The position numbers were made by a program, and so were the translations under genes. The notes below the pieces were generated by a model that saw only the letters and a program-made list of their open reading frames with translations, did no database searches and was not told the DNA's origin. DNA of 64,000 nucleotides from an archaeon. Its GTDB lineage: Archaea; Iainarchaeota; Iainarchaeia; Iainarchaeales; Iainarchaeaceae. This document shows positions 20,639-38,717 of the stretch, piece by piece; within the stretch, counting starts at the first letter, position 1; every line of letters begins with the position of its first letter. The stretch spans positions 16,053 to 80,052 of the forward strand of contig DATDWP010000021.1 in assembly GCA_035289625.1 (NCBI GenBank), read 5' to 3'.

Positions 20639-21505
20639 CTAATGCGCCCACTTACCGGCGTGTGTTAAATCATCGTCCGAATCGTGCTCTGCGTCACCAT
20701 CTTCTTTTTCTACCCTTGATTTGTAGAAATAAACCAGCACGCAAAGAATTATCGCGCCAATAATCAAAAACACATACAAATCCTTATTGCCCACTTCAAC
20801 TTCAAACCCCTTCTCAATAACATGAGTCCCTTGCGCATCATCAAAAAATACCCTCAAAACAATTGGTGTCCTCCCAGTCTGCTCGCCAATAGTAAAAAAA
20901 ATGTTTCCAGAGACTTTTTCAGATGGAGCTAGTGAAGCTTTTTCAAATGCATCCCCCTGAACAATATAGCCTTGAGAAGAGAAGAGCTCTGCACTAATAT
21001 TTGAAATTTCTTGGCCTGAAATATTTGAAATATCAAAAGAAAAAGAACCCTCTTCTTCTGGCTTTAATGATTTATTTGAAAGATTTGCAGAAATTTCAAG
21101 CGGGCTTTTTTTGGAATGCAGAGGCAAAGAGAAATTCTGATCCTGCCCAAATTGTGCCCACACAGAGCCTGCATTTTGAGTTTCTGAAAGGGCTTTTATT
21201 TCAAAAACCCTCTCCTGCGCAAAATTTGGGGAGAGGACAAGGAAAGTGTAATAGAGTTCATCTCGGGGTTCACCTTTTAAAATCAGCGAAAACTCATCTG
21301 AAGATTTTACAACAATCTGCACATTATCCAAATCTGAAAGAGAGGAATTGAGCGCCCTTATCTTGTAATATCTCACCTCATCGACATAAAAAGGCGAATT
21401 TGAATCTTCAAGAGGGAATAGTGTAACGGAGAGATCTGCTAGCGCAAAACTTAAAAAAAGCAAAACAAAAGAGAGGGCCCAAATTAACCTAGGCATAAAG
21501 GTCAA
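20639..21505 (-). CDS. Type I membrane / surface protein with large extracellular domain; hypothetical
   Basis: N-terminal signal peptide, C-terminal TM (LYVFLIIGAIILCVLVYFY) and an acidic cytoplasmic tail EDGDAEHDSDDD. 288 aa. Confidence 0.5.
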   Translation of the reverse strand: MTFMPRLIWALSFVLLFLSFALADLSVTLFPLEDSNSPFYVDEVRYYKIRALNSSLSDLDNVQIVVKSSDEFSLILKGEPRDELYYTFLVLSPNFAQERVFEIKALSETQNAGSVWAQFGQDQNFSLPLHSKKSPLEISANLSNKSLKPEEEGSFSFDISNISGQEISNISAELFSSQGYIVQGDAFEKASLAPSEKVSGNIFFTIGEQTGRTPIVLRVFFDDAQGTHVIEKGFEVEVGNKDLYVFLIIGAIILCVLVYFYKSRVEKEDGDAEHDSDDDLTHAGKWAH

Positions 21506-22793
21506 CTTCCTGAGTAGGCTCTTTTGAAATAATCCCTTTTATTTTACCCCTGTTGTTGAAAATATAGAGGAGCACGAGAATTGCAACAAGCCCTGCCGCT
21601 ATTTGGAATAAAAGCTGCTGCGAAATGCCTTCAGATGGCGCTATCTGCTTTGCACCCTTCTTGTATACAGCAAGAGCATCATCTAGAGCCTGCGCCGCAA
21701 ACTTTTCAGATTGCCCAAAATTGCGCTCATCATAAAATTTAATTGCGCGAGCATAATTTTGCTCAAGTTCGCGCACCTTTGATTGGTCCTGCCAATCCCC
21801 GCGGTTCTCTTGAGATAAAATATAATTTTTTGCTTCCGTGAGGGTTAGAAAATCCGTGTCCTTTTTTATTTTCTCATTTTCAGAATAGATCAAATTATAT
21901 GCATCATTTTTTTGCACCCTATTGTCAAATTCAGAAAGAACAGCATCCATTCTAAGCGAACTTGCCTGCACTGTAGAAGTTAGAGAGCCTTGCAACTGGG
22001 TTGAATATAAATTATAGTTTCGCAAAGCCTGCAAGCCTTGCGGGATTTCTAGTATTGAAAAAAGCTGCGATTTTGTCTGGGTGTCAAGATCTGCTACTGA
22101 GATCTGCTGCTTCAATTTGTCAAGGTTGCTTTTATATAAAATTCCTTTTGAATTTAAAGAATCGATAGATTCAAAAATCGAATTAAATGATGAATCCATT
22201 TCCAAAAAAGCCTTGCCTGAAGGGGATGTTACAAATTCGCTTTCTGCAGCCCCTGCACCTGAAATTTTTGCTGCAATCGAAGAAGAATCAGATGACATAT
22301 CCCTTAGGGAATTTTTAAGAGATGCCATATCAACATCAATATCATTATCCTCTAAAGTGGATTGGACTGTATTTAGCTGGAAAATTTCATCACTAAGTTC
22401 AACCGAGAGTTCATTGAAAATTGCCTGGTATTTTTGGGTAAAAATCCAATCAGCCCCAGAATTTGAAGAAATAGAGGCCTTGAGAAGCTGGATCTCACGC
22501 AACTTGTCAGCGATTTCAAATAACTCCCTATTAACAGAGCGTGAAACTGAAAGCTCGCCGCTCTGCGCGTCAATTGCAAAATATGTAACAATTGTATTTC
22601 CTGCAGTAAGAGGTATTACCCAATACGAATTCTGCTCTTGAAGAATAGTTACATTTGGCGGAGTATATGTCTCGCCTTCGTAGAGGAAATGGTTTGAAGT
22701 TACAATATAATTTACAGCATCGCTTCCTGAAATTGCCACTACAAATAAAGATAGCGCAAGCGCAAAAAAGGCCACAAAAACCCAACTTTTCAT
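21489..22793 (-). CDS. Secreted / C-terminally anchored surface protein, coiled-coil rich; hypothetical
   Basis: Signal peptide MKSWVFVAFFALALSLFVVAISG and C-terminal TM LLFQIAAGLVAILVLLYIF. 434 aa. Overlaps the downstream gene by 17 nt. Confidence 0.5.
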   Translation of the reverse strand: MKSWVFVAFFALALSLFVVAISGSDAVNYIVTSNHFLYEGETYTPPNVTILQEQNSYWVIPLTAGNTIVTYFAIDAQSGELSVSRSVNRELFEIADKLREIQLLKASISSNSGADWIFTQKYQAIFNELSVELSDEIFQLNTVQSTLEDNDIDVDMASLKNSLRDMSSDSSSIAAKISGAGAAESEFVTSPSGKAFLEMDSSFNSIFESIDSLNSKGILYKSNLDKLKQQISVADLDTQTKSQLFSILEIPQGLQALRNYNLYSTQLQGSLTSTVQASSLRMDAVLSEFDNRVQKNDAYNLIYSENEKIKKDTDFLTLTEAKNYILSQENRGDWQDQSKVRELEQNYARAIKFYDERNFGQSEKFAAQALDDALAVYKKGAKQIAPSEGISQQLLFQIAAGLVAILVLLYIFNNRGKIKGIISKEPTQEVDLYA

Positions 22794-23073
22794 CTATTTA
22801 AAGAGGCTTTTTGAGAATAAAAAACTTGGCTCGGCCTTAAAAAGGCTACAAATTAAACAATCCCACCCCAATCCCCCGGCCCTTTGCCTGCTTAAACGCT
22901 GTTTGCCCAAAGGGGCGTACTATATGGGATTGTTTAAAAAGTATTTTCCAATAAACAAATGAACTAGATTGGGATATGCCCTTTTGAGTCGTCAAAGGGT
23001 AGGCCCCAGGGGTTTTTGAGCAGGGCCTCAGTTTTAGGGAGATATTAAATATTTCTACATATTCTAATTAGTA

Positions 23074-23622
23074 ATGGGATTTGATCTTCTAAAAGGGCTG
23101 CAAAACCTTCTTGATGCATTTGAAAAAGAAGACCCACCTGCCCTAAAAAGCCTTGGAAATGAACTCATAAGAAGGGCGTGCGCAAAAACTAATTATAACC
23201 TTGCAAATATTTCAGTAATAGCATACTCACTCTACAAAATCCTCTCAAAAGAGCATTTTGTAAAAAACCCAAAATGGCAAAAAGTTTCAGAGAGCATACG
23301 AACTGAAATAACAAGAGCAATAAAGGCGTGCCAAAAAGAAGACTATTCTGCGCTTAATATCCATCTTGGCCATGTAATACAAAATATTGAATCAATTGAT
23401 AGAGATCTTTCAAACTATGCACGCAACATTTTTGAAAAGGCCAAAATAAAACAAGCATCAACTGCCTATGCAATTGGACTTAGCTTAAATCAAGCCGCAT
23501 CAATAACAGGAGCCGATAGAAAAGAGCTGCAAAAATATATCGGAATAACAACAATCCATGATGAAATAAAGGAAACTGGAATTGAACAGCGCATGAAAAT
23601 TTTACGAGGAGTTCTCAAATGA
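23074..23622 (+). CDS. Hypothetical all-helical protein (182 aa), first gene of a coupled trio
   Basis: No recognisable motif. Its stop overlaps the next start (ATGA). Confidence 0.45.
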   Translation: MGFDLLKGLQNLLDAFEKEDPPALKSLGNELIRRACAKTNYNLANISVIAYSLYKILSKEHFVKNPKWQKVSESIRTEITRAIKACQKEDYSALNIHLGHVIQNIESIDRDLSNYARNIFEKAKIKQASTAYAIGLSLNQAASITGADRKELQKYIGITTIHDEIKETGIEQRMKILRGVLK

Positions 23623-24338
23623 AACAAGAGCCCTATAATGGAGCTGGAAATTCTCTGCCCACAAAAAAATTTATCCTAGACTCTAGCAGCATAATCACAA
23701 TATCCGATAACTGTTTTATAAAAGTCCTAAAACACCTTGCACAAAAGGAAAATATAACATTCATCATACCAGAATCGGTGTACAAAGAAAGCGTCCTAAC
23801 CCCGCTTAACATAAAAAGGTTTGAACTAAGCGCAATACGAATACAAGACGCTGTCACTGATGGATATATACAAGTTGCAAAAACAACAGAATCAGTAAAA
23901 GGAAAAATGCAACGAATCGAGGCAATAACCGACAGGCTGTGCAGCTTTGAAGGCAGCCCACTAAGAGTTGTGCACCGCGGGGAAACTGAAACCCTTGCAC
24001 TTCTAAAAGAATTGGGGGCCCAAATGCTTGTAATTGATGAAAGAACAACGCGCATGCTAATAGAAGAGCCGAGTAACATCATTAGGTTTTTACAAAAAAA
24101 ATACCCAGGCATAAATGTGAACAAACAAGCAATCAATGAATTTAGAAACGAATACGGGGACATAAAAGTTTGCCGCTCCGTTGAACTCATAGCACTAGCA
24201 CATGAAAACGGAACCCTTGAAAGGGAAATACACAAATCAAATAGATCGCTAGAAGCTTGCCTATATGCCGCAAAATTTGCAGGATGTGCTGTTTCATTTG
24301 ATGAAATTTCAAAATATATGAAAAGGGTGAAACAATGA
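23619..24338 (+). CDS. PIN-like nuclease-fold protein (tentative), 239 aa
   Basis: N-terminal acidic strand KFILDSSSIITISD, then IIPESVYKE, then GETETLALLKELGAQMLVIDERTTR, which resemble PIN motifs 1-3. 4-nt overlaps on both sides. Confidence 0.35.
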   Translation: MKQEPYNGAGNSLPTKKFILDSSSIITISDNCFIKVLKHLAQKENITFIIPESVYKESVLTPLNIKRFELSAIRIQDAVTDGYIQVAKTTESVKGKMQRIEAITDRLCSFEGSPLRVVHRGETETLALLKELGAQMLVIDERTTRMLIEEPSNIIRFLQKKYPGINVNKQAINEFRNEYGDIKVCRSVELIALAHENGTLEREIHKSNRSLEACLYAAKFAGCAVSFDEISKYMKRVKQ

Positions 24339-24787
24339 TAGAAAAGGCCCACTACAAGGACGCAACTGAAATTGCAAAAATAATTGCAAAAGAGTTCCCC
24401 TACAAAAACTATACCGAAAAAGGCCTTCTTGAAAGGCTCAATAGCGGCAAGGTTGCAATATTCAAAAAAACAATCGGAAACTCCATTGCCGGATTTGTCG
24501 AAGTTGAAATGAAAGGAAATTTTGGCATGATAAATGCAATTTCAGTAAAAGAAAAATACCGCAAAAAAGGATTTGGAAAAGAGCTGCTATCCCATGCAAT
24601 TTTTTTCCTCAAAGCAAGCGGAGTGCCTTTTGCTCGGCTTTTAGTAAAAGAGCAAAATAAAAACGCAAAAAACCTATACGTGCTACACGGCTTTTCCCTC
24701 TCAAAAATACACGATAGAAAAATAGAAGGATCAATTGTTGAAGTGTGGGAGAAGAATTTGCAAGAGGAAGAAGAGTACCTTAACTAA
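24335..24787 (+). CDS. GNAT-family N-acetyltransferase
   Basis: Acetyl-CoA binding motif NAISVKEKYRKKGFGKELLSHAI. 150 aa. Confidence 0.7.
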   Translation: MIEKAHYKDATEIAKIIAKEFPYKNYTEKGLLERLNSGKVAIFKKTIGNSIAGFVEVEMKGNFGMINAISVKEKYRKKGFGKELLSHAIFFLKASGVPFARLLVKEQNKNAKNLYVLHGFSLSKIHDRKIEGSIVEVWEKNLQEEEEYLN

Positions 24788-24907: not shown

Positions 24908-26416
24908 TCAGTACGCTTTTGCGAATAGTACGCGCCTTTTTGCATTTGTCCCCATGAAAATGCACTTTCCCGGAGATTGTTTTTGATCAAATGGGATGCA
25001 GCGCGAACTAACCCCATATTTTTCCTTTATTTTCATTTCATGGCCAGGGTCTTCGCAAAAATATGCAAGCACCATCTTTTTTTGTGAAATCCCTTTCTCA
25101 AATTCTTTGAGTGAATTTGCCTGCACAATATTTTCATCAAGGAACTTTTTTGCCTTTGAAAACATATCAGAGTGCATCTCTTCTAGGATTTGTGGAATCC
25201 TTTTCACAACATCTTTTTCTTTGACAAATTCCTTTTTCCCGCTATCCCTTCTAACAACTACAACATGCCCTTTTTCAATGTCCTTTGGCCCTATTTCGAT
25301 TCGCAAGGGAATCCCTTTCAATTCCCAATCATTGAATTTCCAACCAGTGCTATATTGCTCCCTATCATCTAAAATAGCCCTAAATTCTTGAAGTTTCTTT
25401 TCCATCTCTTTTGCCTTTTTGAGAACTTCTGTTTTTGTTTTTTCAAAAAGCACAGGAACAATTACCGCTTTATTTTTTGCAATGCGCGGCGGAAGAACTA
25501 ACCCTTTATCATCCCCGTGCACCATCACAATTGCGCCAAGCAACCTGGTGCTAAATCCCCAACTAGATTGCCAAGGCAGCTGCTCATTTTTTTTCTCATC
25601 CGTAAATTTTATACCAAAAGATTTTGCAAACCCCTGGCCCAAATTATGGGATGTTCCCATCTGCAAGGCCCTTCCATCCGGCATTAGCGCTTCAATTGTT
25701 GTAGTGTAAAGGGCACCTGCAAATTTTTCCGCTTCGGTTTTCTGCCCAGAAATTACAGGGATTGCAAGAAGCCCTTCAATCATCTTCTTGTACTCATCTA
25801 AAAACATCCGAACTTCCTTATCGCATTCCTCTTTAGTGGTGTATACACAATGGCCTTCCTGCCACAAAAACTCGCGCGTGCGCAAAAAAAGCTTTGTCTG
25901 CTTGACTTCCCACCTCAACACATTGCACCACTGATTTATGCGAAGCGGCAGATCGCGCCACGAGCGCACCCATTTTGAAAAAGAATCATAAATAATTGTT
26001 TCCGAGGTCGGGCGTATTGCCACTTTTTCTTCATCTTTATCATCGGAAGCAACCCAGGCAAGTTCGGGGGCAAATCCTTTTGCGTGCTCGGCTTCCTTTT
26101 CAAAAAAGCTCTTCGGGATAAGGAGCGGAAAGTAGGCATTCTGCACTCCGTGGCTTTCAATCACACGGTTAAAATAGCTCTGAATTGCTTCCCAAATTGC
26201 ATAACCGTTTGGCCGGATTACCATAAAGCCGCGCGTTGGGGCATAATCCGCTAGATTTGCCTTGAGCACTACCTGATTGTACCATTCGACAAAATCCGCG
26301 TCCTTTTTTACGGTAATTCCCAAAAGGTTCTCATCGGCCACAAAATCACTTAAATAGTAAAATATAGAGGAAATAAAAGGGTTTGGACTGATTTGCCTAT
26401 CGCTATTTCCTTGCAA
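24908..26416 (-). CDS. proS: Prolyl-tRNA synthetase, archaeal/eukaryotic-type class II
   Basis: 502 aa. Class II core motifs and a C-terminal Zn-binding-like domain with Cys/His. Architecture typical of archaeal ProRS. Confidence 0.8.
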   Translation of the reverse strand: MQGNSDRQISPNPFISSIFYYLSDFVADENLLGITVKKDADFVEWYNQVVLKANLADYAPTRGFMVIRPNGYAIWEAIQSYFNRVIESHGVQNAYFPLLIPKSFFEKEAEHAKGFAPELAWVASDDKDEEKVAIRPTSETIIYDSFSKWVRSWRDLPLRINQWCNVLRWEVKQTKLFLRTREFLWQEGHCVYTTKEECDKEVRMFLDEYKKMIEGLLAIPVISGQKTEAEKFAGALYTTTIEALMPDGRALQMGTSHNLGQGFAKSFGIKFTDEKKNEQLPWQSSWGFSTRLLGAIVMVHGDDKGLVLPPRIAKNKAVIVPVLFEKTKTEVLKKAKEMEKKLQEFRAILDDREQYSTGWKFNDWELKGIPLRIEIGPKDIEKGHVVVVRRDSGKKEFVKEKDVVKRIPQILEEMHSDMFSKAKKFLDENIVQANSLKEFEKGISQKKMVLAYFCEDPGHEMKIKEKYGVSSRCIPFDQKQSPGKCIFMGTNAKRRVLFAKAY

Positions 26417-38614: not shown

Positions 38615-38623
38615 TAATAAAAG

Positions 38624-38717
38624 TGGGAGAGCCCAGATTTGAACTGGGGTCGACACCAAATTGGAAGCGTTTACCTCTCCCCAAGGTGCCATACTAACCA
38701 AGCTATACTACTCCCCC
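38624..38717 (-). tRNA. Intron-containing tRNA, anticodon most likely UGG (Pro); ~20-nt intron 3' of the anticodon loop; no encoded CCA
   Basis: Reverse complement reads GGGGGAG-TA-GTAT...GGCAC-CTTGGG-[intron]-GTGTC-GA-CCCAG-TTCAAAT-CTGGG-CTCTCCC-A. Acceptor stem 7/7 (one G-U), canonical T-arm, 94 nt. T-rich tract follows on the minus strand. Confidence 0.6.

Follow-up and report, generated by a model that had tools for sequence, protein, structure and literature searches.

A conserved PIN and helix-turn-helix gene pair with a coupled GNAT gene in Iainarchaeota: a probable housekeeping module and candidate RNA-processing endonuclease

Three overlapping genes lie in tandem on the plus strand of the genome of a DPANN archaeon of the Iainarchaeaceae (GenBank assembly GCA_035289625.1, contig DATDWP010000021.1; from here, the window is the whole 64-kb stretch that was analysed). 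Read as open reading frames (ORFs) from the sequence, gene A (23074-23622) encodes a helical protein of 182 aa, gene B (23619-24338) a PIN-like protein of 239 aa and gene C (24335-24787) a GNAT acetyltransferase of 150 aa. We propose, at a probability of roughly 0.55, that these genes form a conserved operon in which a PIN/helix-turn-helix (HTH) pair of toxin-antitoxin-like ancestry has been fixed as a housekeeping RNA-processing endonuclease. That the locus is a conserved housekeeping module and not a classical toxin-antitoxin or defence cassette we regard as quite likely; a role in RNA processing, judged separately, falls somewhat short of even odds. What appears new here is that a PIN/HTH pair forms a core gene set throughout a lineage, is repeatedly fused and is linked to the exosome operon.

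Conservation, genomic context and fusion of the A-B pair

One genome per GTDB species was scanned, gene B relatives were found in 407 genomes, and the best 80 loci were inspected by scoring six-frame ORFs against hidden Markov models of A, B and C. These species-representative loci stem from 80 different assemblies and are all of the Iainarchaeota/Micrarchaeota type; the closest relatives of the cassette proteins belong to Candidatus Iainarchaeum / Diapherotrites. Gene A is located upstream of gene B on the same strand in 78 of the 80 loci, with one exception at a contig edge, and a GNAT gene follows B directly on the same strand in 67. The first-pass annotation, made from the window alone, had described three ORFs joined by 4-nt ATGA-type overlaps and had read this arrangement as tight co-expression. 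Its coordinates match the sequence exactly. Both junctions, at 23619-23622 (A/B) and 24335-24338 (B/C), read ATGA, the next ATG overlapping the preceding TGA at each. The genes are translationally coupled, and the arrangement is no accident, A-B recurring in the 78 loci and the whole trio in the 67. Apparent 4-nt overlaps were counted between A and B in 32 loci and between B and C in 30, both approximate numbers that depend on longest-ORF start calls.

The wider surroundings are conserved as well. The prolyl-tRNA synthetase gene proS occurs within 3 kb in 48 of the 80 loci and the gene for a divergently transcribed 434-aa protein in 42. In 46 loci, identity to the window proteins was compared with that of the adjacent prolyl-tRNA synthetase (ProRS), giving Spearman coefficients of 0.64 for B, 0.57 for A and 0.79 for C. 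The GNAT proteins share only 29-54% identity across the linked loci; in two loci (L019 and L022) the gene has been relocated yet is still nearby, and in the most distant, Micrarchaeota-like loci it has no place next to A-B. The window holds one copy each of A, B and C. Conserved synteny, divergence that tracks ProRS and the presence of one locus per listed assembly together point to vertical inheritance, so that the A-B-C operon looks chromosomal and inherited by descent, not like a mobile addiction or defence module.

According to the Pfam annotation of the flanks, the neighbours in the window are MscS, TatD, a small methyltransferase, ProRS and, 4 kb away, UvrC. In other loci a SpoU methylase, DNA ligase (adjoining the trio in L005), enolase, ScpB, eRF1 and diphthamide synthase were found, and this annotation contained no mobile-element or defence neighbours. 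A defence island was therefore rejected, on the strength of the housekeeping flanks and of a PADLOC search that gave weak PIN-type candidate matches only. The earlier suggestion of a toxin-antitoxin or defence module, possibly with a defence-island context, is thus not upheld: the locus is syntenic and looks vertically inherited, its flanks are housekeeping genes, a strong match to the defence database is lacking, and relatives carry the pair in an exosome superoperon.

This last context emerged from a second set of 80 Woesearchaeota-type metagenome loci (L092-L171), the best 80 of the scan, and from named relatives; the latter span Iainarchaeota, Micrarchaeota, Woesearchaeota/Nanoarchaeota and Aenigmarchaeota. 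Upstream sequence of more than 600 nt was available in 61 of these Woesearchaeota-type loci, and in 59 of them gene A comes before B; no GNAT gene stands next to A-B in any of the 80. In one Woesearchaeota locus (L089) the pair follows PsmA-SBDS-Rrp4-Rrp41-Rrp42-RpoK-DUF357 in the same orientation, and in a locus labelled Aenigmarchaeota (L091) a fused A::B gene occupies the same exosome string. Of the 32 Woesearchaeota-type loci whose upstream sequence exceeds 3 kb, 13 have exosome-operon genes upstream in the same orientation, A-B standing at the 3' end of the superoperon; the whole set contains 16 loci with such genes. The Rrp4-Rrp41-Rrp42 superoperon is well established and predicts RNA-metabolism partners such as SBDS (PMC2806925, PMC2890523). 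In the remaining Woesearchaeota-type loci, where A-B is outside the exosome operon, the recurrent upstream neighbours are RNase HII (16 loci), a pseudouridine synthase and an Obg-like GTPase; downstream, CorA (26 loci), HerA/DUF87 (23 loci) and a Mre11-like phosphoesterase were recorded, and PvlArgDC is a further recurrent neighbour. In another locus (L090) a fused A::B gene precedes HerA and a metallophosphoesterase.

An exhaustive search with the gene B profile returned 593 representatives at 50% identity, of which at least seven are proteins of 403-430 aa with an A-like N-terminal half fused to B. A further search found many fused (402-442 aa) and split forms in Woesearchaeota, Nanoarchaeia/Nanoarchaeota and Aenigmarchaeota; many more clusters at 90% identity are such fusions. 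The gene A profile aligns to residues 6-163 of one fusion protein (hhalign probability 97.9%), and the fused proteins pass almost directly from the last helix of A into strand beta1 of the PIN domain. Recurrent fusions with so short a linker suggest that A-B is a stable protein of two parts and not a toxin kept in check by an inhibitor that can be degraded. The GNAT gene is not next to A::B in the five fusion loci examined. The sole B::GNAT fusion, a protein of 280 aa (P0073) that joins B residues 1 to about 205 to the GNAT sequence from residue 43 or so onward, was considered as a Rosetta-stone case and rejected; it is found on a single ENA contig of 7130 bp and is best read as an in-frame deletion or assembly chimera, not as a true domain fusion.

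Predicted properties of the three proteins

The AlphaFold2 model of the gene B product, built on 91 homologues, reached a predicted local distance difference test (pLDDT) score of 94.6 and has a PIN fold, with the core at approximately residues 16-150 (nt 23664-24068), followed by a helical C-terminal extension (residues 151-239). VapC toxins are its nearest structural matches, and the model agrees with the VapC group of the PIN domain-like superfamily in its Rossmann-like alpha/beta/alpha fold with a central parallel beta-sheet and in its conserved acidic residues. Five acidic residues (D21, E57, E122, D140 and E141) are invariant in the 91 sequences and E124 is conserved in at least 90% of them. 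They fall within the motifs FILDSSS (D21), PESVYKE (E57) and GETETL...VIDE (E122/E124 and D140/E141). The tetrad D21, E57, E122 and D140 is located at the end of beta1, in the helix that follows beta2, where the helix preceding the last core strand begins and immediately past that strand. The model thus places them at canonical PIN catalytic positions. Invariant, too, are R142 and R145 of the IDERTTR motif as well as R186, S187, K219 and G222 in the C-terminal extension. The initial description of the middle protein as PIN-like, drawn from its acidic motifs, is borne out, since the quoted motifs hold these invariant residues and the PIN model is confident; the acidic set is complete, and the loss of catalytic residues that had been considered was not seen. 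Given the PIN fold and the invariant acidic tetrad, gene B is predicted to encode an active metal-dependent endonuclease.

Family assignment of gene B depends on the resource used. No significant match was obtained in local Pfam, NCBIfam and PDB sequence searches (for PDB with single sequence and profile), and the local Pfam and NCBIfam scans of A and B returned noise alone (ComR_TPR at E 0.0028, SPACA9, CBF5). Precomputed annotation attached PF11848.14 (DUF3368, the COG2405 PIN family) to nearly all gene B homologues, unmarked (E <= 1e-5) in Iainarchaeota and labelled 'weak' in Woesearchaeota-type proteins and fusions, whereas a fresh local hmmscan against Pfam-A gave no PF11848 match for gene B or 20 homologues even at E <= 10. 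This discrepancy between the precomputed tables and the fresh scan looks like an effect of differing model versions. In the same tables PF26425 (PIN_halo) was weakly attached to some homologues. Gene B carries the motif GE.E...(I/V)D(D/E)..R followed by a helical C-terminal region, a layout that we take to be typical of COG2405; compared with that layout gene B presumably has about 35 extra residues and a longer C-terminal extension.

For gene A an all-helical AlphaFold2 model of ten helices (pLDDT 88.1) was obtained, with a helical bundle (residues 1-112), an HTH-like domain (approximately residues 119-164) and a C-terminal helix (residues 170-181). The HTH-like part contains the highly conserved segment KIKQASTAYAxGLSLxQAAxLTGADRKELQKYIGxTxIHDE. 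No Pfam or PDB sequence match was found for gene A (for PDB with single-sequence and profile searches), and fold searches returned generic helical proteins only. The most recurrent Pfam match of its C-terminal fragments is UPF0175, seen in register in six of ten fragments and always below the gathering score of 27.9 (best match 20.3 bits, E 4.6e-4); among full-length proteins it appeared in three of 21, again below threshold (best E 0.028). The conserved segment has the character of an HTH that resembles UPF0175 weakly but repeatedly. The first-pass annotation had found no recognisable motif in this protein, a statement that the C-terminal HTH overturns; its guess that the protein is the partner of the PIN protein gains from the A::B fusions and from the sub-threshold UPF0175-like matches.

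UPF0175 proteins were reported exclusively next to COG2405 PINs, as their antitoxin-type partner (PMC5499597; see also PMC2701414). This pairing, together with the in-register matches, makes it plausible, and in our view most likely, that the A-B pair descends from the COG2405-PIN/UPF0175-HTH class of VapBC-like modules.

Gene C clearly belongs to the small GNAT proteins, as the first-pass annotation had stated. It matches PF00583 with E 8e-12 (45.9 bits, cutoff 20.7), PF13673 with E 8e-11 (42.5 bits, cutoff 23.6) and PF13508 with 37.3 bits (cutoff 27), and GNAT sequences in PDB with E values down to 8e-8; an archaeal Nat/Ard1 structure was not among these PDB matches. The acetyl-CoA motif A is intact (R75-K-K-G78-F-G80) and the motif-B tyrosine is present (NLYVLHGF). 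The best NCBIfam match is TIGR01575 rimI (E 1.5e-13), and its 51.0 bits lie below the equivalog cutoff of 86.4; the protein should therefore be called RimI-like only. It resembles RimI and archaeal Nat in its size of 150 aa, its single GNAT domain and its motif A, and differs in the sub-cutoff score and in the coupling of its gene to a PIN nuclease gene. Bacterial RimI is encoded together with tsaB/tsaD.

Expression signals and flanking genes

A gap of 280 nt (22794-23073) separates gene A from the divergent gene for the 434-aa protein, and 120 nt separate gene C from the convergent proS. A TATA-like box, ATTAAATA, was read from the sequence at 23044-23051 (+), its centre about 26 nt upstream of the gene A ATG, and in most of 72 related loci ATTAAATA or TTAAATA follows an A-run 24-33 nt before the start codon of A. 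Archaeal promoters have their TATA box centred at about -26/-27. This position and geometry imply that the cassette has its own promoter, which would yield a leaderless or near-leaderless tricistronic mRNA. Possible Shine-Dalgarno-like elements are GAGGAG at 23606-23611 (+), 7 nt before the gene B ATG within the 3' end of gene A, and AGGGTGA at 24324-24330 (+), 4 nt before the gene C ATG within the 3' end of gene B. An 8-bp palindrome, CTAATTAG (23064-23071), is situated downstream of the TATA box and ahead of the gene A ATG.

The upstream gap had been described as one flank of an island. The 280-nt distance to the divergent gene is correct, but a compositional island was rejected, the GC content of the cassette (0.34-0.45) being the same as that of the flanks. 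No Rfam family or tRNA was found near the cassette in scans of the interval from 20 to 28 kb, and a structured non-coding RNA in the upstream spacer was rejected as well, fold z-scores being -1.0 and -0.2 (221 nt, 22825-23045). Only the 38 nt adjoining the divergent gene are kept in relatives. The spacer also contains a perfect 13-bp inverted repeat at 22853-22865 / 22925-22937 (AAACAAUCCCACC / GGUGGGAUUGUUU in the fold); the middle of the spacer is not conserved in relatives.

Some further features were recorded in passing. On the minus strand an ORF at 23633-24352 mirrors gene B with exactly 239 aa; it is most likely a shadow ORF because all homology evidence favours the plus-strand gene. 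Two overlapping genes divergent from the cassette, at 21489-22793 (-) and 20639-21505 (-), encode the 434-aa protein and one of 288 aa. Both proteins have hydrophobic N- and C-terminal segments and no Pfam match, and homologues are syntenic with the trio in 42 and 15 of the 80 related genomes, respectively, and also in L001 and L002; they resemble a conserved pair of surface or membrane proteins, so far uncharacterised. The ProRS encoded at 24908-26416 (-) falls into two identity classes when the 46 syntenic loci (L009-L081) are compared with the window, at 61-77% and 33-42%, unlike the continuous identities of A, B and C, which may reflect two ProRS types or gene replacement in the same genomic slot. 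The sole tRNA gene of the window, for tRNA-Pro(GGG) at 38623-38717 (-), is 95 nt long, a length that suggests an intron-containing gene of archaeal type. Five contigs with the order A-B-GNAT-proS carry bin names of Peregrinibacteria, Falkowbacteria, Chloroflexi/Chloroflexota or Thaumarchaeota (L011, L040, L048, L055, L057); they keep the archaeal synteny and are probably mis-binned Iainarchaeota contigs.

Alternative explanations and biological meaning

In the mechanism that we propose, A and B would be an obligate two-subunit PIN endonuclease complex, as suggested by their adjacency and fusion. B would be the metal-dependent endonuclease with its intact acidic tetrad and conserved helical C-terminal extension, and A would supply recognition of the nucleic-acid substrate, or regulation, through its HTH and bundle. 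The substrate would most likely be RNA, given the VapC/Nob1-type fold and the exosome-operon context in relatives, and the pair might act in processing or turnover of rRNA, tRNA or mRNA, possibly with the exosome. To this pair Iainarchaeota would have added the translationally coupled RimI-like GNAT, which, more speculatively, would acetylate a protein of that pathway, for example a ribosomal or RNA-binding one, or else A or B. The first-pass annotation had named an RNA-processing or modification module as its alternative; of this proposal the better fit compared with toxin-antitoxin stands, and the function itself is a prediction. Likewise, of the idea of a conserved housekeeping operon with known function, conservation and the housekeeping-like character hold and the known function does not.

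Among described PIN enzymes, the pair may work like the housekeeping RNases Nob1, Utp24/Fcf1 and the PIN domain of Rrp44/Dis3, although it has no specific domain arrangement in common with them. Like these, A-B behaves as a single-copy conserved gene, and its relatives adjoin the exosome genes Rrp4/Rrp41/Rrp42 and the ribosome-biogenesis gene SBDS. Gene B differs in lacking the Zn-ribbon of Nob1 and the RNB/CSD domains of Rrp44, is closer to VapC toxins than to these enzymes, and appears to need, or is fused to, a helical-HTH partner that they lack; its putative exosome link is one of gene order. A more specific version, in which A-B is a DPANN-only core RNA-processing endonuclease, a domesticated toxin-antitoxin that works with or is tethered to the exosome or the ribosome-maturation machinery in parallel to the Rrp44/Dis3 PIN or Nob1/Utp24, and in which the GNAT of Iainarchaeota acetylates the complex or a client, is tentative and in our judgement doubtful. 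The PIN_15/PIN_17 proteins, in which a GNAT without acetyl-CoA motif A is fused to PIN and joined to PUA/ASCH, and which are sporadic (PMC5499597), resemble the cassette in that a GNAT-fold protein and a protein with an HTH are encoded alongside a PIN nuclease. An identity with this PIN-GNAT-PUA type was rejected: the cassette GNAT stands on its own as a protein of 150 aa and keeps motif A (RKKGFG), Pfam and NCBIfam scans of A, B and C gave no PUA/ASCH match, and the conservation of the trio suggests vertical inheritance.

Several points weigh against an RNA-processing housekeeping enzyme. The spatial clustering of the acidic residues of B is read from the topology. Linkage to the exosome was observed only in relatives of the Woesearchaeota and Aenigmarchaeota types, where it may go back to a single ancestral arrangement instead of two independent ones, and phmmer searches with the L089 proteins found no Rrp4, Rrp41, Rrp42, RpoK or DUF357 homologue in the 64-kb window or in the Iainarchaeota loci. 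The statement that the pair is single-copy covers the 80 loci listed. Literature searches on DPANN with PIN, UPF0175 or acetyltransferase, and on the exosome superoperon with PIN, returned no paper on the A-B family. RNase HII, HerA, the Mre11-like phosphoesterase, DNA ligase and UvrC as neighbours would fit a DNA substrate equally well. Finally, an HTH gene upstream of and overlapping by 4 nt a catalytically intact PIN gene is exactly the layout of a type II toxin-antitoxin system, and B has weak matches to the PADLOC defence candidates PDC-S70 (E 7.7e-7) and PDC-M69C (E 9e-6).

The last two observations feed another explanation, that the locus is a true toxin-antitoxin system on the chromosome, whether a COG2405/UPF0175 pair of VapBC-like type or a system of three components that includes the GNAT. 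B would then be an RNase toxin, A would combine the roles of HTH antitoxin and autorepressor, and C would be a modulator or second effector; the system would serve in antiviral abortive infection or the response to stress. Defence systems are known to include fused toxin-antitoxin proteins, for instance CapRel, and the palindrome upstream of gene A could be an operator. COG2405 (DUF3368, PF11848) PINs and their UPF0175 (PF03683/COG2886) HTH partners are predicted VapBC-like type II toxin-antitoxin pairs (PMC2701414, PMC5499597), and the COG2405 family was described as potential toxins (PMC5499597). The cassette resembles these pairs in gene order and overlap, in the VapC-group PIN domain with its conserved acidic residues, for which VapC toxins are the closest structures, in the precomputed PF11848 assignment of B, and in the in-register, sub-threshold UPF0175 matches on the HTH of A. 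It departs from them in other respects. A has 182 aa with a large, conserved and structured helical bundle before the HTH, unlike short labile antitoxins and the small UPF0175 proteins (Pfam model of 75 positions), and local Pfam scans of A and B stayed below significance for either family. The pair is lineage-wide, syntenic and single-copy among the listed loci, 80 loci from 80 assemblies with proS synteny and ProRS-tracking divergence, which does not match the sporadic, mobile or multi-copy distribution of type II systems; it is kept in several DPANN phyla with very small genomes. Mobile-element and defence neighbours and a GC anomaly are lacking, and the contexts are housekeeping genes or, in relatives, the exosome superoperon in which the module is embedded. 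The recurrence of short-linker A::B fusions argues against control by antitoxin degradation. Moreover, the GNAT is of RimI-like type, and Pfam and NCBIfam scans gave no sign of the RHH or DUF1778 partner that GNAT toxins typically have. On balance, we consider a genuine toxin-antitoxin system distinctly unlikely.

Less probable still, and by a clear step, is a DNA-directed replication or repair module, in which A would use its HTH to bind DNA and B would cleave DNA flaps or R-loop-type structures together with the products of neighbouring repair genes. Such genes do occur, namely RNase HII upstream (16 loci) and HerA/DUF87 (23 loci) and the Mre11-like metallophosphoesterase downstream in the Woesearchaeota-type set, DNA ligase next to the trio in L005 and UvrC 4 kb off in the window; furthermore, the PIN-like superfamily includes FEN-type DNA nucleases (PMC5499597). 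These repair-type neighbours are, however, not conserved in Iainarchaeota, unrelated genes such as CorA and PvlArgDC are equally frequent, and among the multi-gene operon contexts the exosome superoperon alone recurs in two lineages with different labels. A separate question concerns gene C, which could be a passive hitch-hiker, held in place by inherited gene order in a compact genome, its product an unrelated general N-terminal or ribosomal-protein acetyltransferase. In DPANN archaea, whose genomes are compact, gene overlaps are common. The RimI-like best family match would agree with this, as would the GNAT-free surroundings of A-B in Micrarchaeota-like loci, in all 80 Woesearchaeota-type loci and in the five fusion loci. 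The linkage in 67 of 80 species-level genomes at 29-54% identity, its survival of rearrangement in L019 and L022 and the apparent B/C overlap in 30 loci make hitch-hiking rather unlikely, and it would touch gene C alone, leaving the conclusion on A-B unchanged.

An A-B pair that became a housekeeping RNA-processing endonuclease would be of interest beyond this locus. DPANN archaea have extremely reduced genomes, so the retention of A-B as a single copy in the listed loci, across several DPANN phyla, suggests that the pair is likely important; all members of the family are annotated as 'hypothetical protein' and A belongs to no Pfam family. Automated toxin-antitoxin and defence finders would probably call the locus VapBC-like on its architecture, and the comparative data argue otherwise. 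If the proposed RNA-processing nuclease is real, the few known archaeal enzymes of RNA decay and rRNA maturation would be joined by an endonuclease, the archaeal exosome might gain a PIN partner, as in eukaryotes, and the pair would clearly exemplify how a module of toxin-antitoxin type can take on a housekeeping role.

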